Assembly: GCA_002441245.1 (NCBI GenBank)
Contig: DJVP01000012.1
Coordinates: forward strand, 260,255-324,254
Reading direction: 5' to 3'
Length of the DNA: 64,000 nucleotides
Source of the DNA: Candidatus Omnitrophica bacterium UBA6253
Lineage (GTDB): Bacteria; Omnitrophota; Gorgyraeia; Gygaellales; Profunditerraquicolaceae
The notes beneath the pieces were generated by a model. It was given only the letters and a program-made list of their open reading frames with translations, was not told the DNA's origin and made no database searches. A program made the position numbers and the translations under genes. Shown here piece after piece: positions 1,038-35,354 of the stretch (position 1 is the first letter of the stretch; each line of letters opens with the position of its first letter).

Positions 1038-1041
1038 AGAT

Positions 1042-3143: not shown

Positions 3144-4206
3144 TTGAATTAATCCTCCCTTGTTTTAAAGAGTCAGCTTTTGAATAATCAATAAACCTTC
3201 CTAGACCTTTAGCCATCTCATCCATACAAAAGTTACATGCGCCTTGCGGCTCATCAATACATCTCTTTTGGGGATATATCTCATAGAGCTTACGGAATGG
3301 TTGTGGAGTAAAATTCGGCATTAAAACATTTGCCCCGCACTTTAAACCATCCATTCTGTAATCTCTATCCAGACTGCCCAAGGCAGTCGTAGCAGGGATA
3401 TGCGCATTTTTAGTAACTATGCGGGTCAAGGCAATGGTTTTTAAACTAAGTTCAACATTACCCTTTTGCTGACCGGCAAACTGAGTATCCTGATGAGGAA
3501 TAAACGGGCCTATGCCGATCATATCAAAATCATTGCGTTTAAAGAAAATAATATCATGAGAGATGGTCTTTAAGGTTTGCCCGGGTAGGCCGATAATATT
3601 ACCTGAGCCAACCTGATAACCTAATCTCCTTAGAACCTGCAGGCAATCCAGGCGCTGCTTAAAATCCATTTGCGGATGCATAGATGAATATAAGGCCCCA
3701 TCGGTAGTTTCAATTTTCAATAAATACCTGTCAGCGCCGGCCTCTCGCCAAATCCTATAATCATCCCCGCTTCTTTCTCCCACCGAAAGAGTAACCGCTA
3801 TGTCAAAACTTGATTTTATTTTTAAGATAATATCTCTTAGCCATAAAACATCCAAACCTTCATCTTCTCCGGACTGTAAAACCACTGTCATAATCTTACG
3901 CGAAGCAAGATATTCAACTGCCTTAAGCAACTCATCCTTATCTATCCGGTAGCGCTCCAACTTACGGTTATTCTTATTCAGACCGCAATAAAAACACTCC
4001 CGCAGGCAAAAGTTAGAAAACTCTATTATCCCCCGCAAAACAATGCCATTTCCGCAAAACTTTTTTCTCACAGTATCGGCAAAAGAAAACAACTCATTTA
4101 ATTCTTCCTGCCTGTCTAAAGCTAAAACCCGCTCCAAGTCTTCAGGTTCTGGCAGAGAAACGTCGTAGATTCTATTTAAAAGCCCGTTTAGTTTAGACAT
4201 ATTCAT
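3136..4206 (-). CDS. hydE: [FeFe] hydrogenase maturase radical-SAM HydE
   Basis: 356 aa. Biotin-synthase-like radical SAM enzyme with CxxxCxxC as CLRECFYC. Its ends overlap hydG and hydF. Confidence 0.88.
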   Translation of the reverse strand: MNMSKLNGLLNRIYDVSLPEPEDLERVLALDRQEELNELFSFADTVRKKFCGNGIVLRGIIEFSNFCLRECFYCGLNKNNRKLERYRIDKDELLKAVEYLASRKIMTVVLQSGEDEGLDVLWLRDIILKIKSSFDIAVTLSVGERSGDDYRIWREAGADRYLLKIETTDGALYSSMHPQMDFKQRLDCLQVLRRLGYQVGSGNIIGLPGQTLKTISHDIIFFKRNDFDMIGIGPFIPHQDTQFAGQQKGNVELSLKTIALTRIVTKNAHIPATTALGSLDRDYRMDGLKCGANVLMPNFTPQPFRKLYEIYPQKRCIDEPQGACNFCMDEMAKGLGRFIDYSKADSLKQGRINSNV

Positions 4207-5623
4207 CTCTTAAACCGGAATCAACATGCAAAAAAAACAATTTCAGCATTTCTTGTTCAACAGGTTCTAACTGCTTAAAATAATGCCCGATCATTTTATA
4301 ACCCGCATCTTTAACCGCAACAGACGCAAAATCATCGAGATACTCCTTAAGCGTTATCAGGGCATTCATACTACATTTGCCTTTAATTGTCCCGGGCTTA
4401 GCCATCTGCATAAAAGCCTCTCCGGTCCTTTCTTTGCGATAACAGGCGGCGCAAAAAGAAGGAATATAGTCGTGCGCAATCAAAGAAGCAACGACTTCCT
4501 CAATAGTACGATTATCGCCAAGAGAAAACTGGCTTCCGGCCTTTTCGGAAACCATGCCGGCTTTTTCGGCAGGGATACCAGTACCAGCATCCCTGTTATC
4601 AGAATATCCTCCGGGCGAAGTAGAAGATTCCGCGCTGACCTGCGAAACCCCAAGGCCAAGAAGCGCGTCGCGCATAACAGCAGACTCACGGGTAGACATA
4701 ATAATGCCGGTGTATGGCACGGAAAGCCTTAAAACAGCAACTACCTTTTTAAAATCTTCATCCGAAATCTTATGCGGCGGATTAAAAGAAAGCATTGCTC
4801 CTTCTGCCGGTTCAATGCGCGGCACGGATATTGTATGCGGGCCAACATTAAACTCCTTTTCCATATGCTCTATATGGGAAAGCAACCCCAGTGTCTCAAA
4901 CCTCCAGTCATATAAACCATAAAGCGGCCCAATACCAATATCATCAATTCCAGCGGCAAAAGCCCTGTCCGGTGCACTGATCCGGTTATCCGGGTCACTC
5001 TTTGGGCCGCTAAGATGCATCGCCCGGTAAGTCTGGTCATGGTAGGTTTCCTGAAAGATTTGAAAAGTCCCGATACCGGAGGCCTTCAATTTTTTAAAAT
5101 CACCGACGCTTAACGGCGCACAATTGACATTAACCCTTTTAATTTTATGTTTACCTATTGCCGCTTCGTAAATAGTTTCAACCGCCTGGACATAATAATC
5201 GATGTTTGACTGTCCTGCAGGTGATGCCTCTCCGCAAACTGCCAATATCCTCTTATGCCCGCGCCTTAGGAGCCACTGGATTTGCTGGGTAATTTCGGAA
5301 GTAGTAAGCGCCTTGCGTTTAAGTCCTGAGTTATCCGATTTGAAACCGCAGTATTGACAGTTATTCACGCAAAGATTGCTGATATAAAGCGGCGCAAAAA
5401 GCACTACCCTCCTGCCATAAACAGCATCCTTAACAAAACTGGCCGCCTTGAATATCTTCTGGATATATTCAGGATCCTTGACCGAAAGCAAGGCCGCAGA
5501 CTCCTCCAATGTTAAACGTTTAAGTGATTTTGTTTTCTCAAGAATGGCATCAAGCTTAAGGCTATCAAACTTATCCATATCAGCAAGCAAATTATTTATC
5601 TTCTCTTCATTTATGTATTTCAA
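4193..5623 (-). CDS. hydG: [FeFe] hydrogenase maturase radical-SAM tyrosine lyase HydG
   Basis: 476 aa. ThiH-like radical SAM enzyme with N-terminal CVNNCQYC and a C-terminal auxiliary cluster region (SFCAACYR). It forms a contiguous hydGEF set with its neighbours. Confidence 0.88.
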   Translation of the reverse strand: MKYINEEKINNLLADMDKFDSLKLDAILEKTKSLKRLTLEESAALLSVKDPEYIQKIFKAASFVKDAVYGRRVVLFAPLYISNLCVNNCQYCGFKSDNSGLKRKALTTSEITQQIQWLLRRGHKRILAVCGEASPAGQSNIDYYVQAVETIYEAAIGKHKIKRVNVNCAPLSVGDFKKLKASGIGTFQIFQETYHDQTYRAMHLSGPKSDPDNRISAPDRAFAAGIDDIGIGPLYGLYDWRFETLGLLSHIEHMEKEFNVGPHTISVPRIEPAEGAMLSFNPPHKISDEDFKKVVAVLRLSVPYTGIIMSTRESAVMRDALLGLGVSQVSAESSTSPGGYSDNRDAGTGIPAEKAGMVSEKAGSQFSLGDNRTIEEVVASLIAHDYIPSFCAACYRKERTGEAFMQMAKPGTIKGKCSMNALITLKEYLDDFASVAVKDAGYKMIGHYFKQLEPVEQEMLKLFFLHVDSGLRDEYV

Positions 5624-5672
5624 AATTCACCTCGTTCGATAACAGATATAATGGCTGAACAGGATCCGCTAA

Positions 5673-5924
5673 CTATTCGGATTTGCTTAATCCTGATTTT
5701 ACCGACACCCCGCCGATCTTGCCCAGTTTACCGGTTAAGGCGCCTAAATCATCGGTAGACGCGTTTACAATCAATACAATTACGCTTAACTCCCTCTTCA
5801 CATGAGGAATCCCCATACGCCCGAGAATCAGCTCCCCGAATTCCGTCAAAATACTATTAACTAGCGGAGCGGACTTTTTACGGTTATGAATAATAACCCC
5901 CACAAATCCTAAACGCTTTTCCAT
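5673..5924 (-). CDS. Small TM1266-like protein, the putative iron-only hydrogenase system regulator family
   Basis: The track ORF 5673..6026 starts at TTG and its first 34 codons read through the tandem repeats. An internal ATG at 5924 is preceded by AAAGGAGATAGGG and gives an 84-aa protein, MEKRLGFVGVIIHNRKKSAPLVNSILTEFGELILGRMGIPHVKRELSVIVLIVN..., which has the typical size of this family. It is positioned between the hydrogenase structural genes and hydG. Confidence 0.5.
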   Translation of the reverse strand: MEKRLGFVGVIIHNRKKSAPLVNSILTEFGELILGRMGIPHVKRELSVIVLIVNASTDDLGALTGKLGKIGGVSVKSGLSKSE

Positions 5925-5952
5925 CCCTATCTCCTTTCTTATAAAAATCCGC

Positions 5953-6042
5953 CACCAGGCGGACACCCGTGCAATTCCAATTAGCACGGGGTGCCAGACA
6001 CCAGGCGGACACCCGTGCAATTCCAATTAGCACGGGGTGCCA
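5953..6042. repeat. Two tandem copies, 46-nt period, of a 44-nt unit. Each unit contains an imperfect hairpin: CACCCGTGC, then 12 nt, then GCACGGGGTG.
   Basis: caccaggcggacacccgtgcaattccaattagcacggggtgcca occurs at 5953-5996 and again at 5999-6042. The copies are identical except for the last 1-2 nt. Direct reading. Confidence 0.85.
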
Positions 6043-6057
6043 AACGCTGAATGTCCT

Positions 6058-6120
6058 CTAAAAATAAAAAACCCAACCCTTCTTAAAAAATAATCCTGCA
6101 GAAAGATTGGGATGTTGCAT
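6058..6120 (-). CDS. Candidate 20-codon leader ORF (MQHPNLSAGLFFKKGWVFYF)
   Basis: On the minus strand, AAGGGAGGATGA precedes ATG CAA CAT...TAG. The ORF lies between the hydA stop and the tandem hairpins. It may be fortuitous. Confidence 0.2.
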   Translation of the reverse strand: MQHPNLSAGLFFKKGWVFYF

Positions 6121-6181
6121 TCATCCTCCCTTGGGTATAGAGCCGCTTTCCGGTCCTTACCGCAGGATTCATTATTTGTTT

Positions 6182-7933
6182 CTATTTTATGTAAACCGGC
6201 CTGGCCTTATAATGCACATGCAGAAGTTTTTCCGACTTCTCGCTCAAGGGCTTGCCTAGAAATTCTTTATAAAGCCTTTTTATATACGGATTCTGATGAC
6301 TGCAACGAATCTGTTTTTGATCATCATCCTGATACAATGCCTGAGCCCTTTTAATCCTTAGTTCATCTGTAACCATATAAGGCTGGCCGCCGCCGCCAAC
6401 ACATCCGCCCGGGCAAGCCATAACTTCAATAAAATGATACGGCATTTCTTTATTATTAAGCTTGGCCTCGCGCACCTTATTTAAAATATGTTCCACATTG
6501 CCCAAACCATGGGCAATAGCAATCTTGAGTTTCTTGCCGTCAACCTCAATCTCAGTTTCCTTAACGCCCTTTAAGCCACGGACGCTAACAAACTCCACAT
6601 TTTTTAATTCTTTACCAGTAACAAAATAATGCGCGGTCCTTAAAGCTGCTTCCATTACACCGCCGGTTGACCCAAAAATAACCCCTGCGCCGGCATATTC
6701 GCCTAAAATACTATCGCACTCCTCATCGGGCAGAGTATCAAAATCTATGCCTGCCTGTTTAATCATGCGTACCAACTCCCTGGTACAGAGAACTGTATCT
6801 ATATCCTGAAAGCCCGAAGCAGACATTTCTGCATTCCTGGTAATCTCATATTTCTTAGAAGTGCAAGGCATAATTGAAACCATAAAAATCTTGGCAGGGT
6901 CAATTTTATTCTTTTCTGCATAGTACGTCTTGGAGAGTACACCTAAAATTTCATGCGGGGATTTACAGGAAGAAAAATGTTCAATCATATCCGGATAGAA
7001 CTTTTCCATAAAATCTACCCAGGAAGGACAGCAGGAGGTAATTAAAGGCAGTGGCCTATTCCCATGTAAAAGCCTTTCCTCAAACTCGCTTGCTTCCTCC
7101 ATAATCGTAACATCTGCGGCAAAAGAGGTATCAAAAACCGCATGGAACCCTAAGCGTCTTAATAAAGCGTAAAGTTTCTTGGTAAAATTCTTGCCCACAT
7201 AACCAAAGGCCTCTCCTATAGATACCCTGACTGCAGGGGCAATCTGCACCACGCAATATTTATCCGGATCCATCAGCCCCTTCCAGACTTTGGCTGTATG
7301 ATCCTGTTCAACAAAGGCACCCGTAGGGCAATGCGCTGAGCACTGCCCGCACTTAACACAAGGAGAATCGGCTAATTGTATATCCCCGGCAGGAGAAATC
7401 CGGGTTTTCATCCCTCTTTCCAAAAATGACAAAGCCCAGACATCCTGCAGCTCCTGGCAAACATGCACACATCTGCCGCAAAGAATACATTTTTTAGGAT
7501 CAAGGTCTACGGCGCTAGTTGAAGTGTCTATCGGTAAATCCCTTAAATACTGCGGGAATGATTCATCTTTAATTCCGAAATCCGCGGTAAGTTTTTGCAA
7601 CTCACACTGATTATTCCTGGCACATTTAAGGCAATCATTGGGATGGTTGGATAAAATAAGTTCAATTACCGTCCTGCGAATTTCAACTATTTCCGGGTCA
7701 TGCGTAATAATATCCATCCCCTCATCCAGCGGAGTACAGCAGGAACGCAGCATCTTATGCGACCCCTTATTCTTTACAATACAAATACCGCAGGATGCTG
7801 AAGCAGGCAGGTCCGGATGTTTGCATAAAGTAGGGATTTTTATCTGCACCCTCTTAGCCGCCTCTAAAATAGTAGTGCCTTCTTCTACCCGCAATAAAAT
7901 TCCGTTTATTCTTGCCTTAATTATTTTTGCCAT
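6182..7933 (-). CDS. hydA: [FeFe] hydrogenase catalytic subunit, Hnd-type HndD/HydA with M3 architecture
   Basis: 583 aa. N-terminal 2Fe-2S ferredoxin domain, His-ligated [4Fe-4S] (HPNDCLKC) and two ferredoxin-type clusters. All three H-cluster motifs are intact: L1 TSCCPSW, L2 MPCTSKKYE, L3 EVMACPGGCVGGGGQP. Confidence 0.92.
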   Translation of the reverse strand: MAKIIKARINGILLRVEEGTTILEAAKRVQIKIPTLCKHPDLPASASCGICIVKNKGSHKMLRSCCTPLDEGMDIITHDPEIVEIRRTVIELILSNHPNDCLKCARNNQCELQKLTADFGIKDESFPQYLRDLPIDTSTSAVDLDPKKCILCGRCVHVCQELQDVWALSFLERGMKTRISPAGDIQLADSPCVKCGQCSAHCPTGAFVEQDHTAKVWKGLMDPDKYCVVQIAPAVRVSIGEAFGYVGKNFTKKLYALLRRLGFHAVFDTSFAADVTIMEEASEFEERLLHGNRPLPLITSCCPSWVDFMEKFYPDMIEHFSSCKSPHEILGVLSKTYYAEKNKIDPAKIFMVSIMPCTSKKYEITRNAEMSASGFQDIDTVLCTRELVRMIKQAGIDFDTLPDEECDSILGEYAGAGVIFGSTGGVMEAALRTAHYFVTGKELKNVEFVSVRGLKGVKETEIEVDGKKLKIAIAHGLGNVEHILNKVREAKLNNKEMPYHFIEVMACPGGCVGGGGQPYMVTDELRIKRAQALYQDDDQKQIRCSHQNPYIKRLYKEFLGKPLSEKSEKLLHVHYKARPVYIK

Positions 7934-7935
7934 AT

Positions 7936-9678
7936 TTACTTTTTATTGATTGCCTTGAATTTACAAACATCAAAACACTGCCCGCATTTTATGCACTTAT
8001 CCTGGGCTATAGAATACCCCTCTTCCTTGCTTCCGCTAATTGCCTTTACCGGGCAATTATTAAAACATATCCCGCAACGCTTACACTTATCCTCAATTAT
8101 AGTATAAGTTATCAGGCTGCTGCATTTTCCCGCAGGGCATCTCTTGTTTAGAATATGCTCATTATACTCATCTTCAAAATATTTTAAAGTAGAAAGCACC
8201 GGGTTTGAAGCAGTCTGGCCTAATCCGCATAAAGATGCCTTCTGCATAGCCTGGGCAATCCTGCGCAACTGCCCCAAATCTTCCGGTATACCCCTGCCTT
8301 CAGAAATCTTTTTCAGATAACCAAGCATCTGGAAACCGCCGATACGGCAAGGAGCGCATTTTCCACAGGATTCCTCCACACAGAAACCCAGATAAAACTT
8401 GGGGATATCTACCATACAATCATCATCATCCATAACAATCATGCCGCCTGAGCCCATGATTGAACCCAACTTTTGTAAATTTTCATAATCCACCGGCGTA
8501 TCTAAAAGCTCTTCGGGAATAACCCCTCCTGAAGGCCCGCCTGTCTGCACTGCTTTTATCGGTTTGCCAGAAAGGGTTCCTCCGCAGATATCCATTACAA
8601 TCTCTCTTAAAGTAGCGCCCATAGCAATCTCTACTAAACCTGAATTCTTAACCTTGCCGGTTACCGCAAAGACTTTCGTTCCTTTTGAGGTCTGAGTACC
8701 AATCTGGGCAAACCACTTTCCGCCCTTAGCAATAATAACCGGAATATTAGCTAAAGTCTCGACATTATTAATAACAGTAGGTTTTCCCCATAGCCCTTTT
8801 ACCGAAGGATACGGCGGACGGGGGTGAGGAGTTCCCCTTTTACCCTCTATAGATGAAATCAAAGCGGTTTCCTCGCCGCAGACAAACGCTCCCGCACCTA
8901 ACCTTATATCTATATCCAGATTAAAAGAACTCCCAAGGATACCACTTCCTAACAGGCCATAATCATAAGCCTGCTTGATTGCCTTCTCAATTCTCTCTAC
9001 TGCCAGCGGATACTCTGCGCGGATATAAAAGTACCCCTTGGAAGCCCCAATGGCAAAGGCGGCAATAATCAAACCTTCGATAACCGAATGTGGATCACCC
9101 TCCAAAACACTCCTGTCCATATATGCCCCAGGATCCCCTTCATCGGCATTGCAGATAACAAATTTTTCGGCAGAATTCATCTCGCGGGCAAAATTCCATT
9201 TCATCCAGGTAGGATACCCTGCGCCGCCTCTTCCCCGTATACCGCTAAGCTTAATCTCATCAATTAATTTCAGCTGGCCCAATTCGCCGAGGACTTTTTT
9301 TAAGGCCAAATAACCTCCGCTGGCAATATAATCATCAATGCTCTCCGGGTCAATCTTTCCGCAATTGCGCAAAACGATCCTGTGCTGCTTTGCCTTAGGT
9401 TTAAAAACTAAATCTTCGATAACCTTGCCTTCGGACAAGATAGCATCAACTATCTTTTTAACATCCGTATCCTGAACATTAATATAAGTGACCTTATCCG
9501 GCAAGACCTTGACTACCAGCCCCTGATCATACACTCCGATATCGGCAACCCTGACCACCTGGATCTGCTCATGCAGGCTTGCCTCCCGAAGATAGTCTAA
9601 TAAACGGGTATAGAATTCACGCGTCTTATCTTCCCTTTTTAGATCCGTATCTTTTACTAAAATAACCTTGGTATACAT
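7936..9678 (-). CDS. hndC: NuoF-like flavoprotein subunit of the bifurcating hydrogenase (HndC/HydB)
   Basis: 580 aa. N-terminal thioredoxin-like 2Fe-2S domain, NADH/FMN site GRGGAGYPTWMKW, N3 cluster ESCGKCAPCR, and two C-terminal 4Fe-4S ferredoxin motifs (CKRCGICFNNCP, CIKCGQCFDVC). Confidence 0.9.
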   Translation of the reverse strand: MYTKVILVKDTDLKREDKTREFYTRLLDYLREASLHEQIQVVRVADIGVYDQGLVVKVLPDKVTYINVQDTDVKKIVDAILSEGKVIEDLVFKPKAKQHRIVLRNCGKIDPESIDDYIASGGYLALKKVLGELGQLKLIDEIKLSGIRGRGGAGYPTWMKWNFAREMNSAEKFVICNADEGDPGAYMDRSVLEGDPHSVIEGLIIAAFAIGASKGYFYIRAEYPLAVERIEKAIKQAYDYGLLGSGILGSSFNLDIDIRLGAGAFVCGEETALISSIEGKRGTPHPRPPYPSVKGLWGKPTVINNVETLANIPVIIAKGGKWFAQIGTQTSKGTKVFAVTGKVKNSGLVEIAMGATLREIVMDICGGTLSGKPIKAVQTGGPSGGVIPEELLDTPVDYENLQKLGSIMGSGGMIVMDDDDCMVDIPKFYLGFCVEESCGKCAPCRIGGFQMLGYLKKISEGRGIPEDLGQLRRIAQAMQKASLCGLGQTASNPVLSTLKYFEDEYNEHILNKRCPAGKCSSLITYTIIEDKCKRCGICFNNCPVKAISGSKEEGYSIAQDKCIKCGQCFDVCKFKAINKK

Positions 9679-9697
9679 AAATTAATTATTCCCGTTT

Positions 9698-10045
9698 TTA
9701 AATCAATACCTCAAAGATATAATCATTTACTAACATTTTAGAAATCACATGTTTTTCAAGTATTTTAGTGGCTATATCCTTATTCACTGAACCGTAGATT
9801 ACCGAAGGCAGGCCCTCTACATTTACCTCAACCAAAGGCTCAGCATAGCACATACCCGCGCAACCGCATTTTTTAATTTCAATTTGAAGGTTGCGCTTCT
9901 TTACCTCTTCGACAAAAAAATTAAAAACTTCATCTGCGCCGGCAGCAATACCGCAACTGCTTAAGCCAACCTTAATCCAATCTTTAGGCTTATCAGAAGG
10001 GGCCTTACTCATTTTATCTAAATCAGCGGGAGAAAGTTTATTCAT
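9698..10045 (-). CDS. hndB: Small thioredoxin-like [2Fe-2S] ferredoxin subunit (HndB-like)
   Basis: 115 aa with SSCGIAAG...KCGCAGMC. This is the size and position of HndB in tetrameric Hnd hydrogenases. Confidence 0.7.
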   Translation of the reverse strand: MNKLSPADLDKMSKAPSDKPKDWIKVGLSSCGIAAGADEVFNFFVEEVKKRNLQIEIKKCGCAGMCYAEPLVEVNVEGLPSVIYGSVNKDIATKILEKHVISKMLVNDYIFEVLI

Positions 10046-10051
10046 AATATA

Positions 10052-10525
10052 TTATTCCTCTTTAATATATTTTGACAAGATATCCGCTACCTCATTTTTC
10101 TTTACCTTGCCATAAACCTTATTATCAATCATTACTACCGGAGCCAAACCGCAACAACCAAGGCACCTGACGACATCCAGGTAAAAAAGACCGTCTTTAG
10201 TAGTCTGCCCCTCTTTGATACCTAATATATTTTTTATTTCATCCAGGATTACCGCCGCCCCCCGTAAATAACAAGCTGTCCCCATACATAGGGCAATACG
10301 ATGTTTTCCGGGAGGGATCAATTTAAAGAAATTATAAAAAGTGATCACTTCATAGATCCTGGCCAGCGGGACATCCAGCATTTTGGATAATTCCAATGAT
10401 AGCTCCCTCGGGACATAACCATGATGGTTCTGGATCTCATGCAGAATCATGATTAAGTTGCCTTCTTTACCCTTCCATTGCTGGACAAGGCTGACTAATT
10501 CTGGATTAAGTTTTTTATGTTCCAT
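10052..10525 (-). CDS. hndA: NuoE-like 24-kDa [2Fe-2S] subunit (HndA/HydC)
   Basis: 157 aa. NuoE signature CMGTACYLRG...CLGCCGLAPV. Confidence 0.88.
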   Translation of the reverse strand: MEHKKLNPELVSLVQQWKGKEGNLIMILHEIQNHHGYVPRELSLELSKMLDVPLARIYEVITFYNFFKLIPPGKHRIALCMGTACYLRGAAVILDEIKNILGIKEGQTTKDGLFYLDVVRCLGCCGLAPVVMIDNKVYGKVKKNEVADILSKYIKEE

Positions 10526-10669
10526 GTTTGAAATTTCTAAGAATATTATCTTGCCGGTTTGATCCTTAAGTTCTTAACTTGGCTTACTGAAGATGGGCCA
10601 AAAACAAGAAGCTCGTAGATTAGCGTAAAAATTTTATCATATCTTTCCTAAAAGGCAAGGGAAATTTTA

Positions 10670-12448
10670 CTAAAGCACTCCTTCTCTTTTTTTGTAATAC
10701 GTGTGCAACAAATGGTGCGATTTCTCTCCTAAGGGCTGGCCCAAGAATTCCTTGTATAAAGCCTGTACAGCAGGATTTTCATGTGATTTCCTCAGGGGCT
10801 TATTTTTATCCTCGCGATAAATTGCCTCCATCCTCTTTAGCCTGATCTCATTATTTGTAGGGATCGGCTGCCCTGCGCCTCCCAGGCATCCGCCGGGACA
10901 AGTCATAATCTCAATAAATGCATAAGGCGAACGGCCTTCTTCAATCTCTTCTAATAATACGCGCGCATTGCTTAAGCTATTTGCCACAGCCACCTTTAGA
11001 TTCAACCCGTCAATATCTATGTCGGCAACTTTAATGCCGTTAAGACCCCTTAGATTCATAAAATCAAGCTTTTCCAATTGCCTGCCAGTAAGCACCTCAT
11101 AGGCTGTCCTTACCGCAGCTTCCATTACTCCGCCGGTTGCCCCGAATATTACCGCGGCCCCTGTAGAAATACCCAAAGGCTCATCAAAATCTTCACCCGG
11201 GAGATTTATAAAATTTATCCCCGCCTCTTTAATCAAACGGCTGGCTTCCCGGGTAGTCAAGACATAATCCACATCCCTAAAAGCCTCGTCTTCCTTAAGG
11301 GCCATTTTATTCTTCCAATAATCGAATGCGCTTTGCATTTCTGGCCGGGATGCCTCAAATTTCTTGGCAGTACAAGGCATAATTGAAACAACTATTATAT
11401 TCCTGGGGTCAATATTATATTTCTCGGCATAATAAGTCTTGGCGACTGCACCAAACATTTGCTGAGGAGATTTACAGCTGGAAATATTCCCTAATATCCC
11501 GGGGAAGAAATGCTCGGCAAATTTTATCCACCCCGGAGAACAGGAGGTTATCATGGGAAGTATGCCCTTGTTCTTAATCCGTTGGATCAACTCATAACCT
11601 TCTTCCATAATCGTCAGGTCTGCTGAAAACTGAGTATCAAAGACTTTCGCAAAGCCTAATTTGCGTAACCCCTGGGCCAGTTTAGCTGTAACCAGGCTAC
11701 CTGCAGGCATACCAAACTCTTCGCCAATTGCCGCCCTTACCGCCGGAGCAACCTCAACAACAACAAATTTTTTGGGGTCAGATAAAGCATGCCAAACTTC
11801 CTCTATGGCATTTTTTTCAATGATTGCGCCAGTAGGGCACACTAAAAGACATTGACCGCAGTTAACGCATACGCTGTTTGCCAGGCCGGAATCAAAAAAT
11901 GTAGTTACCTTGCTGGACTTGCCGCGTCCGGAAAAATCAATCGCTTTTACACTCTGAATAGCCGAACACACAGAAACGCAACGGCCACACAAAATACATT
12001 TATTAGGATCACGGGATAAAGATACTGATGTAGCATCCAGGGGTAACTCTGTTTTCGTTGTCTTGGGAAACCTCACCTCTCTTATCCCCATATCAAAAGC
12101 TAGCTTTCTTAATTCACACGACTGGTTTCTGTCGCAGACAAGGCAGTCTTTGGGATGGCCTGCTAAAAGCAGCTCCAGATTCAACCTTCTGGCATTTCTT
12201 ACGCGCTCGGTATTCGTAAAAATCTCCATACCTTCTTTGATGGAAGTAACACATGAACGCAACAAGGTTTTAGCTCCCTTAACCTCAACTAAACAAATTG
12301 AACAGGCAGCTTCCTGATTGATATCTTTTAGATAACAAAGCGTAGGGATATCAATGGCAGCTTTTGCGCAAGCCTCCAAGATAGTCATGCCGGCATCGCA
12401 TTCATAAACCTTGCCGTCAATCTTTAAAGAAACCTTCTTATCTTCCAT
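10670..12448 (-). CDS. Second HydA-type [FeFe] hydrogenase large subunit with an atypical L1 motif
   Basis: 592 aa with the same M3 domain order as hydA. L2 MPCTAKKFE and L3 EIMTCPGGCLGGAGQP are intact. L1 reads TSCSPGW. The second Cys of the canonical TSCCPxW is Ser304, codon TCT at about 11537-11539. Confidence 0.85.
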   Translation of the reverse strand: MEDKKVSLKIDGKVYECDAGMTILEACAKAAIDIPTLCYLKDINQEAACSICLVEVKGAKTLLRSCVTSIKEGMEIFTNTERVRNARRLNLELLLAGHPKDCLVCDRNQSCELRKLAFDMGIREVRFPKTTKTELPLDATSVSLSRDPNKCILCGRCVSVCSAIQSVKAIDFSGRGKSSKVTTFFDSGLANSVCVNCGQCLLVCPTGAIIEKNAIEEVWHALSDPKKFVVVEVAPAVRAAIGEEFGMPAGSLVTAKLAQGLRKLGFAKVFDTQFSADLTIMEEGYELIQRIKNKGILPMITSCSPGWIKFAEHFFPGILGNISSCKSPQQMFGAVAKTYYAEKYNIDPRNIIVVSIMPCTAKKFEASRPEMQSAFDYWKNKMALKEDEAFRDVDYVLTTREASRLIKEAGINFINLPGEDFDEPLGISTGAAVIFGATGGVMEAAVRTAYEVLTGRQLEKLDFMNLRGLNGIKVADIDIDGLNLKVAVANSLSNARVLLEEIEEGRSPYAFIEIMTCPGGCLGGAGQPIPTNNEIRLKRMEAIYREDKNKPLRKSHENPAVQALYKEFLGQPLGEKSHHLLHTYYKKREGVL

Positions 12449-15400
12449 TTATTTTCCCTCTTTGATATCGCACCTTAAACATCTATTTACTTCAACAATG
12501 GCCTGTTTTAATGACAATCCCAAAGAAACTTCCCTAAAGTTATTCCGCCGCTTATTTATCCCCAGCTTCCCGCCGTCTAATCTCTTAGACACTTTTGGTT
12601 CTAAGGGGATTTCAGATTTATAAGTAAACTTACGGAATAACTTGGCAAACCTGTCTTCCGAACTTAACGCCAGATCAATAATCCTGGCAGCTTTCTTACC
12701 GTCAGACATTGCCTCTACTGCCGTTGCCGGGCCCATGACTAAATCCCCCCCGGCATAAACCTTATCCAAACTGGTCTTTAAATCAAACCTGCCTGCCTTA
12801 ACTGTCCCATTCTGGTTAACCAAAATACCGCAACCCTTAATAAACTCTGCGTCTACTTTTTCTCCAATTGCCAGAATTACAGTATCGCAAGGAATTTCAA
12901 AAAACTCATCAGTAGCTACAGGCCTTCTCCTTCCGGAAAGATCATAATCTCCCAATATCATCCTGGTTGCAATCAAACCCTTTAATCTGCCGCGGGGATT
13001 ACCCTGTATAGCTTTGGGACTGGCTAAAAATATAAACTTGACACCTTCAGATTCAGCCCCTTTAATTTCATCTTTATTCGCAGGCATATCCGTTTTTTCT
13101 CTCCTGTAGACAATGGTCACTTCACTGCCAAACCTTAAGGCCGTACGCGCGGCATCCACCGCAACATTTCCGGCGCCAATTACCAAAACTTTTTTGCCGA
13201 TAAGCGGCTCTTTGCCGACCGCCACGTCCTTTAAGAATTCAGTACCCGATAACACGCCTTTTAAACCTTCTCCCGGAATACCTAAACCCATATTTTTATA
13301 AGCCCCCGTTGCCAAAAATACGGCATCCGCCCCTTTAATCTTTTTGTTTAAATTATCTGCGTTAATTTTCTTATTGCATAAAATTTTTGCCCCCATCTCC
13401 TGTATAAAAGCAATTTCTTTCTTTAGCACTGCCTTAGGCAGGCGGTATTCGGGAATACCATAACGCAAAACCCCACCGGCTTCAGGATTAGCTTCATATA
13501 TGATAACATCGTGACCAAGCCGGCTAAGGTAAAAAGCCGCAGTTAACCCGCAAGGACCTGCGCCGACAATACAGATCTTCTTGCCTGTCTTCGGCAACCG
13601 TTCTTTTGCTAAACGCTCAATTATCCTTGCCTCCCTACCGGTTTTATATACCTGGTCTGCAATATACCTATGAATTTCACCCTGAGAAACCGGATAATCA
13701 ATATCTTCCCTGCGGCAGCGCATCTTACAATGGAAATGACAGATCCTGCCGCTGGAAGAAGGAAAAGGATTGTCCCGAATAACACACTCAAACGCTTCAA
13801 TAATTTTCCCTTCCTTAAATAACTCCAGAAACCCCGGGATATTCATGTGCAATGGGCAGCTATTCTCACAGGGGGAAACAAAAAGATCCGAACATACTCC
13901 GCCGTCACAACGCTGCTCTTTAATATGCTCCTCGTATTCACCTCTAAAATATTTAAGTGTAGTAAGTACGGGATTTGGCCCGGTTTGCCCTAATCCGCAA
14001 AGGGCGGTGTCTTTAATCACTGCCCCTAAATCCTGCAAACCCTGAATATCATCCTGGATGGCTTTTCCCTTTGTAATATTAGTCAGGATATTCAAACTCT
14101 GGGTCAGCCCTTCCCGGCAGGGGGTACACTTACCGCAAGACTCACTGGTTGTAAATTCCGTAAAATAACGCGCCACATCAACCATGCAATTATCATCATC
14201 CATTACCACCATTCCGCCTGAGCCCATGATCGCCCCTAAGGAAGCCAAGGTCTCATAATCAATCGGAGTATTAAATAGCGATGCGGGGATACATCCTCCT
14301 GAGGGACCGCCGCTCTGCACAGCCTTGATCTTTTTATTTGTACCGGTACCTGCGCCAATATTATATATAAGGGTCTGCAAAGTTGACCCTAGGGGCAATT
14401 CTACCAAACCTGTATTTTTTATCTTGCCTACAAGAGAAAAAACTTTAGTCCCGGAACTATTTTGAGTACCAGTCTGCGTAAACCAATCCGCCCCTTTTGC
14501 AATAACAACCGGGATATTGCTCCAGGTTTCAACGTTATTAATATTAGTGGGTTTGCCCAAATATCCTTTTTGCGCAGGAAACGGCGGGCGGGGATGCGGT
14601 CTTCCTGATTTACCCTCAAGCGAAGAGATCAGTGCCGTCTCCTCTCCGCAGACAAATGCACCGGCACCTTCCACTAACTGCAGGTTAAAAGAAAAACCAC
14701 TATTAAATATATTGTCGCCAAGTAAACCAAAACTACGGGCATCGGCAATTGCTTTTCTTATCCGCTCTACCGCCAAAGGATATTCTGCGCGCACATAAAT
14801 AACTCCCCTAGAAGCCCCCATAGCATAGGCACCGATAATCATCCCCTCTAAAAGCATGTGCGGATCGCTCTCACTTTCATTACGATTCATATATGCTCCG
14901 GGATCGCCTTCATCAGCGTTACAGATTATATATTTCTCCTCTTGGCCCTCCTTACGCATTAATTCCCATTTTAATCCGGTAGGAAAACCTGCCCCTCCCC
15001 TACCCCTTAACTTTGATTTTTTTACCTCTGCAATTACGGCTTCAGGCTTAAGGTCTCTTAAAACAGTCAGTAAAGCCCGGTATCCGCCTACAGCGATATA
15101 CTCTTCTATATCCTCCGGGTTAATCAAACCGCAATCCCTTAAAACAATCTTTTTTTGCCACTTAAAAAATGGGGTTTTATTCCAATCAGGTATCTGCTCA
15201 AACCCTTTGCCGTAAGAGATTTGGCCGGTGAGATGGTCCCATGTCTCAATTTTACATAAAGCCCTTCTGGGATTAATATTGTTACGGGCAAGCCCCCTAA
15301 CTATAGAATCTGCTTCTTTGGGCAAAACACGATTTAGAATAACCAAAGGCTTACCTGGCAAAGAAATATTGACTAAGGGCTCCTGAGAGCAAAAACCAAA

Positions 15401-15616
15401 ACAACCTACCTTGGTCAATAGTGCCGGCATCTTTCTTTTGGCAAGTGCAACCTTAAAAGCAGAAAATAGCTCTTGTGCGCCGTTACCAATACCACAAGTC
15501 CCCATACCCACTGCGATACGCAAGTTTTTAGGTAATAATTTCGCCATCCCTTTTTCTTTAACCAGCTTTAAATCTTCGGCGTTTTTAATGATCATTTCTT
15601 GTTTCTCCGCAAGCAA
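12449..15616 (-). CDS. Fusion protein. The N-terminal part is a NuoF-like flavoprotein (HydB: 2Fe-2S, FMN/NADH site, N3 cluster). The C-terminal part is a complete GltD/NfnB-like module (2x[4Fe-4S] plus FAD plus NAD(P)H).
   Basis: 1055 aa. Residues up to about 560 carry GRGGAGFPTGLKW and ESCGKCTPCREG. No C-terminal ferredoxin domains follow. Instead a GltD-type N-terminal Fe-S domain appears (CENSCPLHMNIPGF...GRICHFHCKMRC), followed by two Rossmann motifs: ICIVGAGPCGLTAAFYL...GGVLRYGIPEYRLP and VLVIGAGNVAVDAARTALRFG. Confidence 0.85.
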   Translation of the reverse strand: MLAEKQEMIIKNAEDLKLVKEKGMAKLLPKNLRIAVGMGTCGIGNGAQELFSAFKVALAKRKMPALLTKVGCFGFCSQEPLVNISLPGKPLVILNRVLPKEADSIVRGLARNNINPRRALCKIETWDHLTGQISYGKGFEQIPDWNKTPFFKWQKKIVLRDCGLINPEDIEEYIAVGGYRALLTVLRDLKPEAVIAEVKKSKLRGRGGAGFPTGLKWELMRKEGQEEKYIICNADEGDPGAYMNRNESESDPHMLLEGMIIGAYAMGASRGVIYVRAEYPLAVERIRKAIADARSFGLLGDNIFNSGFSFNLQLVEGAGAFVCGEETALISSLEGKSGRPHPRPPFPAQKGYLGKPTNINNVETWSNIPVVIAKGADWFTQTGTQNSSGTKVFSLVGKIKNTGLVELPLGSTLQTLIYNIGAGTGTNKKIKAVQSGGPSGGCIPASLFNTPIDYETLASLGAIMGSGGMVVMDDDNCMVDVARYFTEFTTSESCGKCTPCREGLTQSLNILTNITKGKAIQDDIQGLQDLGAVIKDTALCGLGQTGPNPVLTTLKYFRGEYEEHIKEQRCDGGVCSDLFVSPCENSCPLHMNIPGFLELFKEGKIIEAFECVIRDNPFPSSSGRICHFHCKMRCRREDIDYPVSQGEIHRYIADQVYKTGREARIIERLAKERLPKTGKKICIVGAGPCGLTAAFYLSRLGHDVIIYEANPEAGGVLRYGIPEYRLPKAVLKKEIAFIQEMGAKILCNKKINADNLNKKIKGADAVFLATGAYKNMGLGIPGEGLKGVLSGTEFLKDVAVGKEPLIGKKVLVIGAGNVAVDAARTALRFGSEVTIVYRREKTDMPANKDEIKGAESEGVKFIFLASPKAIQGNPRGRLKGLIATRMILGDYDLSGRRRPVATDEFFEIPCDTVILAIGEKVDAEFIKGCGILVNQNGTVKAGRFDLKTSLDKVYAGGDLVMGPATAVEAMSDGKKAARIIDLALSSEDRFAKLFRKFTYKSEIPLEPKVSKRLDGGKLGINKRRNNFREVSLGLSLKQAIVEVNRCLRCDIKEGK

Positions 15617-16140
15617 ATACCTTTTATAATTTTTCGTAATTTCTCCGAGTTCATCCGGCTGTAAATATTGCCGTCTATCTCAACTACCGGTGCCAGCGCG
15701 CACTGACCAAAACAGGCAACGGTTTTAATCGTAAATTTATTATCCTTGGTAGTTAGAAATGACTTACCGTCTTGGCTGAAATCATCCTCTTTAAAACCGA
15801 ATAGATTAATTAAGAAATCCAAAAGGTTTCTTGACCCCCGGGTATGGCATGCCGTACCCCGGCAGACAATAATTGAATGTTCCCCCTGCGGCGTAAGATT
15901 AAAAAAAGCGTAGAAGGTAATAATATTATAAATCCTGGACAAGGGTACCTTGGTTTTGGCGGCAATATATTCTAAATCATCCTGGGCAAGATATTTATGC
16001 TGATTTAGCTTCTGGGCATCTTCTAATATTCCCAAAAGCCTTCCCGGCTTACCAGCATATCCAGAGATAACTCTATCTAATTCTGCCCTATCTAAACTAG
16101 CCTTTGAAATTTTATTTCCTTTTAACGCAACCCTGTTCAT
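15592..16140 (-). CDS. NuoE-like [2Fe-2S] subunit (HydC) of the second hydrogenase
   Basis: 182 aa with CRGTACHTRG...CFGQCALAPV. It overlaps the start of the fusion gene by 25 nt. Confidence 0.85.
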   Translation of the reverse strand: MNRVALKGNKISKASLDRAELDRVISGYAGKPGRLLGILEDAQKLNQHKYLAQDDLEYIAAKTKVPLSRIYNIITFYAFFNLTPQGEHSIIVCRGTACHTRGSRNLLDFLINLFGFKEDDFSQDGKSFLTTKDNKFTIKTVACFGQCALAPVVEIDGNIYSRMNSEKLRKIIKGICLRRNKK

Positions 16141-16158
16141 CTCTTCCTTTAATATATA

Positions 16159-16785
16159 TTATTTGGTCTTTTCTGTTACATTAACAAAATAAATAAGGTT
16201 CTCTAATTCAATCTCCAGGTTAACATTATTAATGATGCAGCCTTCGGCGGCCTTAAGCCCTAACGGCGCAAAATTAAGTATCCCCTTTATTCCCGAAACA
16301 CAAATTAAATCAGCGGCCTGTTGGGCAGCGATATCCGGCACAGCTAAAATAGCTATGCGTATGCCATTAGATTTTACAAAAGCCTTGACTTCCTCTAAGG
16401 GTAGAACCGGAACAGGGCTAGAGCGGTTAATCTTAGCCGGATCAATATCAAAACCGGCAACGATTTTTATGCCTTCCTTTTCAAATCCCCGATACCGCAT
16501 AAGCGCGCTGCCAATATGTCCGGCACCGACAACAATAACCTTTTGCAACTGGTCCTTGCCGAGGATGCTATTTAATTTTTCAAGCAGTGAATCAATCTGG
16601 TACCCCCCTTTTTTATTACCGGAGATACCAAAGATTGAGAAATCTTTTCTTACCTGAGAGGCAGTTCCTCCTACGGCATCTGCCAGGTTATCTGAGAAAA
16701 CTTTCACAAAACCCAAGGTTTGTAATCTGTAAAGAGCGTTTTTATATCGGGAAAGCCGAATGATGCAGTTCTTATTAGTAATCAT
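16159..16785 (-). CDS. rex: Redox-sensing transcriptional repressor Rex
   Basis: 208 aa. N-terminal winged HTH (IIRLSRYKNALYRL) and Rossmann NADH domain VIVVGAGHIGSAL. It ends 18 nt upstream of the hydC-like gene. Confidence 0.88.
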   Translation of the reverse strand: MITNKNCIIRLSRYKNALYRLQTLGFVKVFSDNLADAVGGTASQVRKDFSIFGISGNKKGGYQIDSLLEKLNSILGKDQLQKVIVVGAGHIGSALMRYRGFEKEGIKIVAGFDIDPAKINRSSPVPVLPLEEVKAFVKSNGIRIAILAVPDIAAQQAADLICVSGIKGILNFAPLGLKAAEGCIINNVNLEIELENLIYFVNVTEKTK

Positions 16786-16786
16786 T

Positions 16787-16842
16787 TTGTTCTATTTTTC
16801 ACAATAACAAGATCAATATAACATCTTCAGTTTATTTGTCAA
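16787..16842 (-). promoter_or_regulatory. Sigma70-type promoter with a Rex-box-like operator, in front of rex and hydrogenase operon 2
   Basis: On the minus strand: TTGACA (plus 16837-16842), a 16-nt spacer, TATATT (plus 16815-16820), then TTGTGAAAAATAGAACAA (plus 16787-16804). The operator compares to the Rex consensus TTGTGAA-N4-TTCACAA. One half-site is perfect and the other matches 4 of 7. It ends 1 nt before the rex ATG, and no Shine-Dalgarno sequence is visible. Confidence 0.4.
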
Positions 16843-16862
16843 GAATATTCTAAGATTATTTT

Positions 16863-17111
16863 TTACAAAAGGAGGGTTACCTGATTTTTAAGGATTTCGA
16901 GAAATCCGTTAGGGTATGAGTCTATAACGCTGGTTTTACCTCCGGGCAGACGCAAGGTAATTTTACCGGAAGAGAGCTTGGCCACTAGAGGTGCATGTCC
17001 GGCTAGAACACCCAAATAACCTGATTCTGAAGGCACAACCAGAGAAAGCGCCTGGCCTTCATAAATAATCTTGTCGCTGGAATAGATACTAACATGAAAA
17101 GATTTGTCCAT
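16863..17111 (-). CDS. atpC: F1 ATP synthase epsilon subunit. Short form containing only the N-terminal beta-sandwich domain.
   Basis: 82 aa, MDKSFHVSIYSSDKIIYEGQALSLVVPSESGYLGVLAGHAPLV... It stops where the C-terminal helical hairpin would normally begin. It is the last gene of the atp operon. Confidence 0.8.
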   Translation of the reverse strand: MDKSFHVSIYSSDKIIYEGQALSLVVPSESGYLGVLAGHAPLVAKLSSGKITLRLPGGKTSVIDSYPNGFLEILKNQVTLLL

Positions 17112-17116
17112 CTTAC

Positions 17117-19376
<2,260 letters not shown>

Positions 19377-35349: not shown

Positions 35350-35354
35350 ATGCG

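Follow-up and report, generated by a model that had tools for sequence, protein, structure and literature searches.

Operon layout and putative regulatory elements

Within the analysed stretch of 64,000 nucleotides (the window), the minus strand carries a set of four genes, comprising rex, a NuoE-like gene, a NuoF-GltD fusion gene and a complete hydA. All four open reading frames named in an earlier note on this DNA were found in the ORF list; the range of 10670-16140 assigned there to the operon covers the NuoE-like gene, the fusion and hydA, with rex lying just outside at 16159-16785 (-). The rex gene encodes a redox-sensing repressor of 208 aa (Pfam Put_DNA-bind_N and CoA_binding). The HydC/NuoE-like subunit (182 aa, 15592-16140, -; Pfam 2Fe-2S_thioredx, E = 9e-39) contains all four residues of the [2Fe-2S] 'C1' cluster, Cys93, Cys98, Cys143 and Cys147, and is matched best, among solved structures, by the C subunits of Csac NfnABC, T. 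kivui HydABC and NiFe-HydABCSL. The fusion flavoprotein (12449-15595, -) and a HydA of 592 aa (10670-12448, -) complete the set.

A motif scan upstream of rex revealed a sigma-70-like, TG-extended promoter, TTGACA-16-TATATT (16815-16842, -), which is the top match within 5500-17200 (11 of 12 positions); as the total of promoter-like matches in that region equals chance expectation, it is the position that supports this promoter. Between the -10 element and the rex ATG lies a weak Rex-box-like palindrome, TTGTGAAAAATAGAACAA (16787-16804, -), with three mismatches to TTGTGAA-N4-TTCACAA. Its window-wide count is not above chance and not statistically significant, and it is the location that is suggestive of a Rex box. 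A rex gene precedes the cluster in Omnitrophota loci and in a Margulisiibacteriota locus (L003), amounting to 9 of the 80 loci scanned. Where rex sits upstream, a high NADH/NAD+ ratio would probably raise expression of the operon.

The maturase genes hydG, hydE and hydF are encoded in the window and directly adjoin the fusion cluster in three other loci (L003, L020 and L050). GltBD and a classical NfnAB are also encoded in the window, apart from the fusion operon, so the fusion is not needed as glutamate synthase or Nfn.

Architecture of the fusion flavoprotein

The fusion ORF spans 12449-15616, from which a length of 1055 aa had been derived in the earlier note. The true start was found to be the ATG at 15595 (Met8 of the ORF), which overlaps the nuoE stop codon as ATGA and lies downstream of a GGAG, giving a protein of 1048 aa, the length of an identical database protein. 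Residue numbers throughout follow the 1055-aa ORF.

Pfam analysis gave the order Complex1_51K (198-369), SLBB, NADH_4Fe-4S (480-564), Fer4_20 (575-659) and Pyr_redox_2 (680-973), with no Fer4 domain after NADH_4Fe-4S and no C-terminal 2x[4Fe-4S] ferredoxin domain, whereas the neighbouring HydB (7936-9678) does carry the latter. Both proteins share 55% identity in the NuoF core, and their alignment stops at C575. The proposed loss of the ferredoxin domains from a HydB/NuoF protein and its fusion to a GltD/NfnB-type module were thus borne out. The AF2 model of the fusion (pLDDT 86, pTM 0.79) yielded BfuB subunits as best structural matches of the N-terminal half (TMt 0.86-0.95), and no single solved chain in the structure comparison spanned both halves.

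An N-terminal thioredoxin-like domain with the B5 site (15272-15520, -) was identified by alignment to the N-terminal domain of T. sibiricus NfnB; its residues Cys41, Cys72 and Cys76 are unchanged in 119 homologs. The NuoF core (13925-15025, -; Pfam) comprises the FMN/NAD(H) site, the SLBB domain and the B1 [4Fe-4S] cluster (Cys494, Cys497, Cys500 and Cys540). It contains the bifurcating-type signatures GDPGAYM, GAGAFVCGEE and GGPSG, the diagnostic meaning of which has been described (PMC7311640, PMC12018979) and which, together with H564, are invariant or nearly so among the fusion homologs. The B2 (Zn) site motif H564-x5-C570-x4-C575 (13892-13927, -) forms the junction to the GltD module and is invariant in the 119 homologs. 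Its residues correspond to H524/C529/C534 of T. sibiricus NfnB, and the histidine is typical of Bfu B subunits (PMC12018979). As judged by these motifs, the fusion keeps every sequence signature of the bifurcating BfuB/HydB core; the conservation of these residues could be mere inheritance.

The GltD-type Fe-S domain (13640-13894, -; Pfam Fer4_20) has ligands for two [4Fe-4S] clusters, namely Cys583, Cys587, Cys626, Cys630, Cys634 and His649, and is followed by the FAD and NAD(P)H dinucleotide-binding domains (12698-13579, -; Pfam Pyr_redox_2). A YRR motif at residues 837-839 (13100-13108, -) aligns with that of the NADPH-dependent NfnL, StnC and Csac NfnA, predicting an NADPH-type nucleotide site, in agreement with the second site presumed earlier. 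The YRR motif, the FAD residues and the cluster ligands show no variation in 119 homologs. The C-terminal tail, RRNNFREVSLGLSLKQAIVEVNRCLRC (12470-12550, -), equals the displaced N-terminal segment of canonical GltD/NfnL: it aligns to NfnL residues 11-48, with the module body aligning to NfnL 50-473, and it has a further match in the N-terminus of the NfnB encoded in the window. Alignment thus identifies the module as a circular permutation of canonical GltD/NfnL. Cys1046 and Cys1049 of the tail are invariant in 119 homologs. His649 occupies the ligand position of the proximal cluster and falls on Lys170 in the alignment with Csac NfnA and StnC, which is ungapped at this point, and on a glutamate of NfnL. 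Lysine is conserved in all NfnABC, whereas the histidine recurs without exception in the 119 fusion homologs and in all 80 loci, a predicted ligand unlike both characterised states.

Comparison with Stn/NfnABC (Nfn-Bfu; S. ovata 8OH5, C. saccharolyticus 9BOV, T. sibiricus 9N5U) revealed the same permuted GltD type with its C-terminal tail (385 bits to Csac NfnA), the module matching Csac NfnA 102-567 and StnC 102-568 end to end with the permuted tail included. The BfuBC-like core and the NADPH-type YRR are likewise common to both. The likeness to Stn seen earlier therefore holds for the module, but not for its placement: in Stn/NfnABC, it is inserted in an A subunit without H-cluster (in Stn, the HydA-like StnC) and the B subunit retains its ferredoxin domain, whereas here the B subunit has the module instead of that domain and is paired with a complete hydrogenase, with full H-domain, as A subunit. 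Identity as Stn was rejected on these grounds. With NfnAB/NfnSL (T. maritima, P. furiosus), the fusion shares the GltD/NfnL fold (TMt 0.82, rmsd 1.9 Å), two [4Fe-4S] clusters, FAD and the NADPH site; it differs in that the operon has no NfnA/NfnS partner and the module is permuted relative to NfnL.

HydA, its L1 serine and conservation across genomes

HydA is an M3-type [FeFe]-hydrogenase catalytic subunit (Pfam Fe_hyd_lg_C and Fe_hyd_SSU) that scores 865 bits against NCBIfam NF040763 (cutoff 765) and has A. woodii HydA1 (630 bits) and T. kivui HydA1 (626 bits) as best solved matches. Direct reading of the motifs agreed with the earlier note. L2, MPCTAKKFE (Cys359; 11354-11380, -), is kept in 120 of 120 homologs, and L3, EIMTCPGGCLGGAGQP (Cys517, Cys521; 10865-10912, -), in 118 of 120. 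The set of F-domain Cys/His ligands is complete, the proton-relay Cys303 and the E/E/R/S relay residues are present, and the H-domain is complete. L1 reads TSCSPGW (residues 301-307; 11528-11548, -), where the window's second HydA has TSCCPSW at the aligned position. In a gap-free alignment, Ser304 falls on CpI Cys300, the position of a [4Fe-4S]H ligand, and Cys303 on CpI Cys299.

The serine at this position had raised the idea of a hydrogenase-like NADH/NADPH/ferredoxin transhydrogenase that lost its H2 chemistry through Ser304, an idea for which Stn, as a HydABC-like scaffold turned transhydrogenase, offers a precedent. We regard this as very improbable. TSCSPGW is present in 119 of the 120 closest HydA homologs, and A. 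woodii HydA1 has the same serine (Ser301) in a bifurcating HydABC enzyme that shows the FTIR bands typical of an H-cluster and whose catalytic activities resemble those of T. kivui HydABC (PMC10021017). As the motif is both common and found in this characterised, active enzyme, the L1 is not unusual and gives no support to a loss of H2 chemistry; Ser304 is best classed as a natural, known and harmless variant of the ligand position. Moreover, StnC has no H-domain, whereas L2, L3 and the relay residues are strictly conserved here across phyla, and maturase genes adjoin the cluster in several genomes. A dead hydrogenase was rejected accordingly. The L2 and L3 motifs, relay residues, F-domain ligands, NF040763 score, A. 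woodii serine and hydG/hydE/hydF genes argue for a real hydrogenase.

The earlier note also considered that codon 304 might have been misread, or that nuoF and gltD might have been joined by faulty assembly. Conservation practically rules out both, and we found no point in favour of either. The codon is TCT on the contig (11537-11539, -), and the recurrence of the serine in homologs speaks against TGT as the true reading. The 100%-identical fusion protein was found on independent contigs, and the junction and all cofactor ligands are invariant in 119 full-length homologs of 60-100% identity. In a survey of 80 species-representative genomes from Omnitrophota, Margulisiibacteriota, Bacteroidota, Spirochaetota and Ignavibacteriota, the gene order nuoE–(nuoF-gltD)–hydA was present in 80/80 loci and TSCSPGW in 67/67 partner HydAs, counting only those with L1 on the contig. 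Gene order and TSCSPGW hold even in a 46%-identical Lys-type relative, implying selection on the whole unit.

Proposed function of the hydrogenase

Like A. woodii HydABC (PDB 7Q4V; HydDB group A3/FeFe-Bfu), the operon comprises HydC/NuoE, HydB/NuoF and HydA; the serine in TSCSPGW is common to both, as are the core of the B subunit and the residues of bifurcating type in it. The two differ at the C-terminus of the B subunit, where the fusion has a module of about 480 aa that contains FAD, two [4Fe-4S] clusters and an NADPH site, and A. woodii HydB has the ferredoxin site, a 2x[4Fe-4S] ferredoxin-like domain. In HydB, this C-terminal domain is mobile, and ferredoxin is reduced there via C1 and B3/B4; the alignments place the GltD module as its replacement. 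HydDB group A2 ('glutamate synthase-linked') likewise has HydA next to a GltD-domain protein, but membership by the HydDB rule calls for GltD 'but not NuoF'; as NuoF is present here, the rule yields A3. Compared by description alone, the archaeal group F hybrid [FeFe]/[NiFe] hydrogenase clusters also contain a NuoF-like HydB with a glutamate-synthase-type domain; they differ by five-gene clusters, a HydA-HyhS fusion and a [NiFe] large subunit, and their function is only predicted, the domain being assigned by the authors to an unknown low-potential acceptor (Greening et al. 2024, PMC11216029).

On balance, we consider it somewhat probable that the operon encodes a functional multimeric [FeFe] hydrogenase of the HydABC/Bfu type (HydDB group A3), in which a GltD module that binds NADP(H) stands where HydB has its ferredoxin-exit domain, and which couples H2 to NAD(H) as well as NADP(H), with ferredoxin probably playing no part. 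Electrons would pass reversibly between the H-cluster, the HydA clusters and [B1-FMN-C1], from where one branch would lead to NAD(H) at FMN and the other from C1 via the two GltD clusters and FAD to NADP(H), the path from C1 being suggested by the attachment point of the module. NADP(H) would serve as the lower-potential partner in ferredoxin's stead, with the net reaction 2 H2 + NAD+ + NADP+ <-> NADH + NADPH + 2 H+.

Alternatively, ferredoxin might dock on the distal [4Fe-4S] cluster of the GltD module as on NfnB, combining Nfn-like NADPH/NADH/ferredoxin chemistry with proton reduction in one machine. In its favour, the two clusters of GltD type form the route to ferredoxin in NfnAB, ferredoxin and NAD are described as constant partners of the Bfu core, and the bifurcating-type residues are kept; such a four-substrate enzyme is possible but doubtful, considering that the dedicated ferredoxin-binding domain (B3/B4) is missing, that the module is of the Stn/NfnABC type, in which FAD is non-bifurcating and the clusters act as a wire, and that the organism already has classical NfnAB.

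Since the standard potentials of H2, NAD and NADP are similar, it is not evident why a bifurcating core would be needed. The closeness of these couples would also suit a non-bifurcating hydrogenase of dual specificity, with NADH at FMN and NADPH at FAD each exchanging with the H-cluster independently and without obligatory coupling. Non-bifurcating NADH-dependent HydAB(C) enzymes are known (PMC7311640), and in one locus (L068) a Ser-type HydA is paired with a minimal NuoF of 402 aa. This option is nevertheless judged unlikely, because the B subunit has the A/M/F residues, GGPSG and the B2-site histidine, which are absent from non-bifurcating enzymes (PMC7311640, PMC12018979), and because the N-terminal thioredoxin-like domain and the C1 subunit are kept.

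For coupling to NAD(H) and NADP(H), assumed E' values of about -280 mV for NADH and -380 mV for NADPH gave, by our own calculation, feasible H2 evolution up to roughly 150 Pa H2. The fusion-bearing type of putative hydrogenase is real and widespread. A limit of this order would suit low-H2 habitats, and the reaction would be readily reversible.

Operon layout and architecture of the fused flavoprotein

Analysis of ORFs and Pfam domains revealed four head-to-tail genes on the minus strand, in the order proposed by the earlier note: rex (16159-16785), a NuoE/HydC-like gene (15592-16140), a NuoF-GltD fusion ORF (12449-15616) and a HydA gene (10670-12448), the start codon of which abuts the fusion stop. 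In that description, only the length of 1055 aa given for the fusion protein had to be corrected, the true start being the ATG at 15595, which forms an ATGA overlap with the stop codon of the NuoE-like gene and has a GGAG ahead. The resulting protein comprises 1048 aa, the same length as a 100%-identical protein of an Omnitrophota MAG (residue numbers follow the 1055-aa ORF).

In a scan of 5.5-17.2 kb, the best promoter-like site was TTGACA-16-TATATT just upstream of rex, no convincing terminator was found between hydA and the next operon, and the overall promoter and terminator counts equalled those of shuffled sequence. Searching for Rex operators with the patterns TTGTGAA-N6-TTCACAA and TTGTGAA-N4-TTCACAA at up to three mismatches returned a chance number of matches, with just one weak site being well placed, upstream of rex. 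This site, TTGTGAAAAATAGAACAA at 16787-16804, is flanked by the -10 element and the rex start codon; it combines one perfect Rex half-site with a poor one and is not significant window-wide. The rex gene also precedes the cluster in Omnitrophota loci and in the Margulisiibacteriota locus L003 (L numbers denote loci among 80 examined species-representative genomes); in the Omnitrophota loci L010, L015, L016 and L027, a stand-alone GltD-like gene of ~470 aa upstream of nuoE occupies the position of the window's rex. The upstream rex fits an induction of the operon at high NADH/NAD+, the operator evidence being weak.

Directly downstream, at 1905-10525 (-), lies a second, Hnd-type four-gene [FeFe] hydrogenase with maturases, encoding a NuoE-like protein (10052-10525), a separate [2Fe-2S] protein of 115 aa (9698-10045), a HydB with ferredoxin domain (7936-9678) and a HydA with canonical TSCCPSW (6182-7933), followed by a TM1266-family regulator (5673-6026), hydG (4193-5623), hydE (3136-4206) and hydF (1905-3143). 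The two hydrogenase clusters are paired likewise in the Omnitrophota loci L004, L005, L007, L008, L045 and L057. The minus strand carries every gene examined below 19 kb and every ORF of at least 180 aa between 19 and 64 kb, with the exception of one that is opposite to, and fully contained in, the gltB ORF; together with a negative GC skew in each 2-kb bin of 1-64000, this is consistent with the window being one long co-oriented replichore segment.

The fusion protein contains, in this order, the Pfam domains Complex1_51K, SLBB and NADH_4Fe-4S of a NuoF/HydB core and Fer4_20 and Pyr_redox_2 of a GltD/NfnB module. Its N-terminal half shares 55% identity with the adjacent HydB, still has the N-terminal thioredoxin-like domain and superposes on the BfuB subunits of solved bifurcating enzymes with a TMt of 0.86-0.95 (Foldseek, AF2 model). 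The alignment to the adjacent HydB stops at C575, and the GltD module begins directly after. No Fer4 or 2x[4Fe-4S] ferredoxin-like tail, as present in the adjacent HydB, was detected in the fusion by Pfam, bearing out the suggestion that the C-terminal ferredoxin domains were lost and a GltD/NfnB module gained. The AF2 model was confident (pLDDT 86, pTM 0.79) and both folds were confirmed with Foldseek; as a single-chain model, it covers the fusion protein by itself. None of the solved chains found by Foldseek spans both halves, none of the curated NCBIfam models reaches its cutoff for the fusion, and the NCBI records name such proteins only 'FAD-dependent oxidoreductase'.

At the sequence level, the flavobicluster [B1-FMN-C1] is complete, with invariant Cys494, 497, 500 and 540 in the fusion and Cys93, 98, 143 and 147 in the NuoE-like protein. 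Bifurcating and non-bifurcating B subunits are told apart by A/M near NADH, F near FMN, GGPSG and the B2-site His (PMC7311640, PMC12018979). The fusion keeps the bifurcating-type residues in GDPGAYM, GAGAFVCGEE and GGPSG, as well as the B2 zinc-site His in H564-x5-C570-x4-C575.

The GltD module aligned end to end with C. saccharolyticus NfnA (102-567, 385 bits) and S. ovata StnC (102-568), including the C-terminal tail ending in NFREVSLGLSLKQAIVEVNRCLRC. Against P. furiosus NfnL, this tail aligned with the N-terminus (11-48) and the body with 50-473, and the window's own NfnB showed the same tail-to-N-terminus relationship to the fusion. This implies that the GltD module is circularly permuted and of the Stn/NfnABC type. 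It carries the YRR motif common to the NADPH-dependent NfnL, StnC and NfnA proteins. Alignment revealed the non-Cys ligand position of the cluster next to the FAD to be His649 here, Lys170 in NfnABC/Stn and Glu in NfnL; in NfnABC, mutating that Lys abolishes bifurcation (PMC12018979). His649 and the other ligand residues named were invariant in 119 homologs, His649 being family-specific, as the position is Lys in a 46%-identical relative and Glu or Lys in more remote fusions, the NuoF motifs of which are degenerate. In a less likely reading, the two nucleotides may act independently of each other in a non-bifurcating enzyme.

Three GltD-family modules occur in the 64-kb window: the fusion, GltD and NfnB. 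Assignment of the fusion as the glutamate synthase small subunit was ruled out, because GltB (25967-30508) has its own GltD (24532-25974), both genes belonging to a nitrogen-assimilation block at 24532-40573 (-) that also holds a type III glutamine synthetase (31074-33269), two ammonium transporters and a glutamine-dependent NAD synthetase. Likewise, the fusion is not the organism's Nfn, since NfnA and NfnB are encoded separately at 1-1872 (-), with an NfnA/PyrK-like gene (1042-1872) and, behind it, a classical, non-permuted NfnB that is cut by the window end after its first 345 aa. The organism thus also has a conventional NfnAB.

The partner HydA and its L1 serine

HydA was identified as a full M3-type enzyme with an H-domain comprising Fe_hyd_lg_C and the small-subunit domain (Pfam E = 2.8e-92 and 1.6e-27), scoring 865 bits against a cutoff of 765 for NF040763 and 514 against 406 for TIGR02512. 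The H-cluster motifs L2 (MPCTAKKFE) and L3 (EIMTCPGGCLGGAGQP) conform with MPCxxKxxE and ExMxCxxGCxxG and are conserved among homologs. L1 reads TSCSPGW and deviates from the strict TSCCPxW, as described before: in an ungapped alignment, Cys303 falls on the proton-relay Cys299 of the reference hydrogenase CpI and is retained, and Ser304 (TCT, 11537-11539) falls on the ligand Cys300. The other HydA of the window, with its canonical L1, is 48% identical.

The earlier note had read Ser304 as pointing either to unusual cluster ligation or to lost H2 chemistry, and was prepared to abandon its reading if homologs with TSCSPGW turned out to be common, characterised H2-evolving enzymes. This is what was found: the motif is present in 119 of the 120 closest HydA homologs, at identities as low as 68%, and the best solved match, A. 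woodii HydA1 (7Q4V chain A, 630 bits), also has LPMITSCSPGWIKF. The corresponding structure paper describes Ser301 in place of one A1-cluster Cys ligand in an enzyme that is active with the same L1 deviation (PMC10021017), so strict TSCCPxW is invalid as an exclusion criterion; TSCSPGW had been recorded in Melainabacteria genomes in 2013 (PMC3787301). The A. woodii precedent and the conservation among homologs imply that the serine does not stem from an error and does not signal a loss of H2 chemistry, and a sequencing error at codon 304 is ruled out by that same conservation. Judged by these comparisons, Ser304 is a selected, known, functional variant. A dead hydrogenase, operating as a transhydrogenase, is disfavoured by the fully conserved H-domain, by the A. 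woodii enzyme as a precedent and by the maturase genes adjoining the cluster, an arrangement seen in loci L003, L020 and L050.

All examined partners of NuoF-GltD fusions were Ser-type HydAs. Elsewhere, the Ser-type accompanies the classical HydB of A. woodii and, in a Bacteroidales MAG, a minimal NuoF; there, a second triad (L068:700-4205) lies just upstream of the NuoF-GltD triad. The HydA of this second triad is Ser-type with TSCSPGW, and its NuoF of 402 aa is devoid of the N-terminal thioredoxin-like domain and of any C-terminal domain; the Ser-type thus has no fewer than three kinds of B subunit as partners. Two homologous proteins from the searches (P0221 and P0234) are Ser-type HydAs of 870-877 aa. 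P0221, the one that was domain-scanned, has a C-terminal HATPase_c, a histidine-kinase-type ATPase domain, which reflects either a genuine fusion or two genes merged in gene calling.

Distribution and relation to known enzyme classes

The protein search returned well over 100 full-length fusion relatives, which measure about 1043-1057 aa and belong to Omnitrophota, Margulisiibacteriota, Bacteroidales/Rikenellaceae and Deltaproteobacteria. A species scan with patterns from the fusion junction region, using one genome per species, yielded at least 600 stretches, at least 586 of them confirmed as relatives, the best 80 of which were examined as loci; these were from Omnitrophota, Margulisiibacteriota, Bacteroidota, Spirochaetota and Ignavibacteriota, as well as FCPU426. 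Among these best 80 of at least 586, the NuoF-GltD fusion was present in every locus (80/80), nuoE lay directly upstream in 65, the remainder being cut by contig ends, and hydA directly downstream in 70; 67 of these 70 HydAs have TSCSPGW, three end before the motif and none has another L1. The possibility of an assembly chimera, named in the earlier note, is thereby excluded, the fusion and the triad being conserved across species genomes. The nuoE-fusion-hydA triad was also found on contigs of Bacteroidales and of Margulisiibacteriota, those of Margulisiibacteriota having hydF, hydG and hydE directly after it, and the 46%-identical relative has the same triad with a TSCSPGW-type HydA. Eight clusters of more distant NuoF-GltD fusions from the protein searches (P0256, P0261, P0262, P0270, P0284, P0286, P0318 and P0343; 33-39% identity, about 1000-1130 aa) have degenerate FMN/NADH-site motifs and Glu or Lys at the His649 position. 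We conclude that the NuoF-GltD fusion is, as read from its genes, a widespread variant of the HydABC-type hydrogenase with a predicted unusual wiring.

The HydDB rule places the enzyme in group A3 and not A2, because the partner protein contains NuoF (Complex1_51K and NADH_4Fe-4S); the A3 rule checks the downstream gene, whereas the NuoF gene here is upstream of hydA. Group A2, which calls for a neighbour with a GltD/GltA domain and without NuoF, is ruled out with NuoF being present in the same protein as GltD. With the bifurcating BfuABC family, the mode of action of which it would probably follow, the enzyme shares the flavobicluster and the bifurcating-specific residues at the sequence level, but the B3/B4 ferredoxin-like C-terminal domain, a defining feature of the Bfu core, is missing and the GltD module stands in its place.

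The resemblance to Stn pointed out earlier holds for the type of the module, as the permuted, NfnL-like NADPH module is common to both, but not for its setting. In Stn/NfnABC, the module resides in a NuoG/HydA-like A subunit without H-cluster domain and the FAD-side cluster has a Lys ligand in all NfnABC, whereas here it is on the B subunit, the A subunit has a complete H-domain and the ligand position is His649. These three differences, in the subunit bearing the module, in an A subunit that is a genuine hydrogenase and in His at the Lys position, place the predicted enzyme outside the Stn/NfnABC family. NfnAB/NfnSL, in turn, requires an NfnA/NfnS (PyrK-like) partner gene, none of which is in the hydrogenase operon of the window, and has a Glu-ligated proximal cluster beside the bifurcating FAD, with His at the Glu position here.

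In the open-access literature, no biochemical study of a bacterial NuoF-GltD hydrogenase was found. Related reports comprised the HydDB rule, the 2013 Melainabacteria note on TSCSPGW, archaeal hybrid hydrogenase clusters (group F) having a HydB with a glutamate-synthase-type domain, described without biochemistry (PMC11216029), and a 2025 paper mentioning NfnL-like domains in proteins that carry the annotation FeFe hydrogenase group A (PMC12018979).

Proposed reaction and its consequences

In current models of HydABC/Bfu, NAD(H) reacts at the FMN, the third substrate enters [B1-FMN-C1] via the A subunit, and low-potential electrons pass from the mobile C1 to B3/B4 of the B-subunit C-terminal domain and on to ferredoxin (PMC10021017). 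In the NuoF-GltD enzyme, the B-subunit ferredoxin domain alone is swapped for two [4Fe-4S] clusters, an FAD and an NADPH site, and NADP(H) would most likely take the place of ferredoxin, with the net reaction 2 H2 + NAD+ + NADP+ <-> NADH + NADPH + 2 H+. In a less likely alternative, the GltD clusters may still serve as a docking site for ferredoxin, which would make a four-substrate enzyme. Beyond the cofactor content, the mechanism and the energetics below are inferred. Our reading of a ferredoxin-independent bifurcating/confurcating [FeFe] hydrogenase, in which the Bfu flavobicluster has NADP(H) for its low-potential partner and the Ser-ligated H-cluster and the His-ligated FAD-side cluster serve as co-selected tuning elements, is put forward tentatively, as a possibility to which we give less than even weight.

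Taking physiological potentials of about -280 mV for NADH, -380 mV for NADPH and -500 mV for ferredoxin (Schut et al.) and E(H+/H2) = -414 mV - 29.6 mV x log pH2, the mean donor potential of NADH plus NADPH is -330 mV, which, by our arithmetic, allows H2 evolution to about 150 Pa; for the NADH plus ferredoxin pair, the limit calculated in the same way is about 0.15 bar H2. With a limit of 150 Pa, the enzyme would be a low-H2, easily reversible valve between H2 and both nucleotide pools. If true, the NADH and NADPH pools would be linked in a third way, in addition to those of Nfn and Stn, via H2 and not ferredoxin.

Motif filters relying on TSCCPxW (for example, PMC6085437) would throw out the whole Ser-type clade. 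HydABC/Bfu is the least understood electron-bifurcating enzyme class, and the NuoF-GltD family constitutes a natural experiment in which the ferredoxin domain is swapped for an NADPH/FAD module and the other bifurcating-core signatures are kept. If H2 is coupled directly to both pyridine-nucleotide pools in these organisms, reconstructions scoring a 'ferredoxin/NADH-confurcating hydrogenase' would be wrong on the electron carriers.
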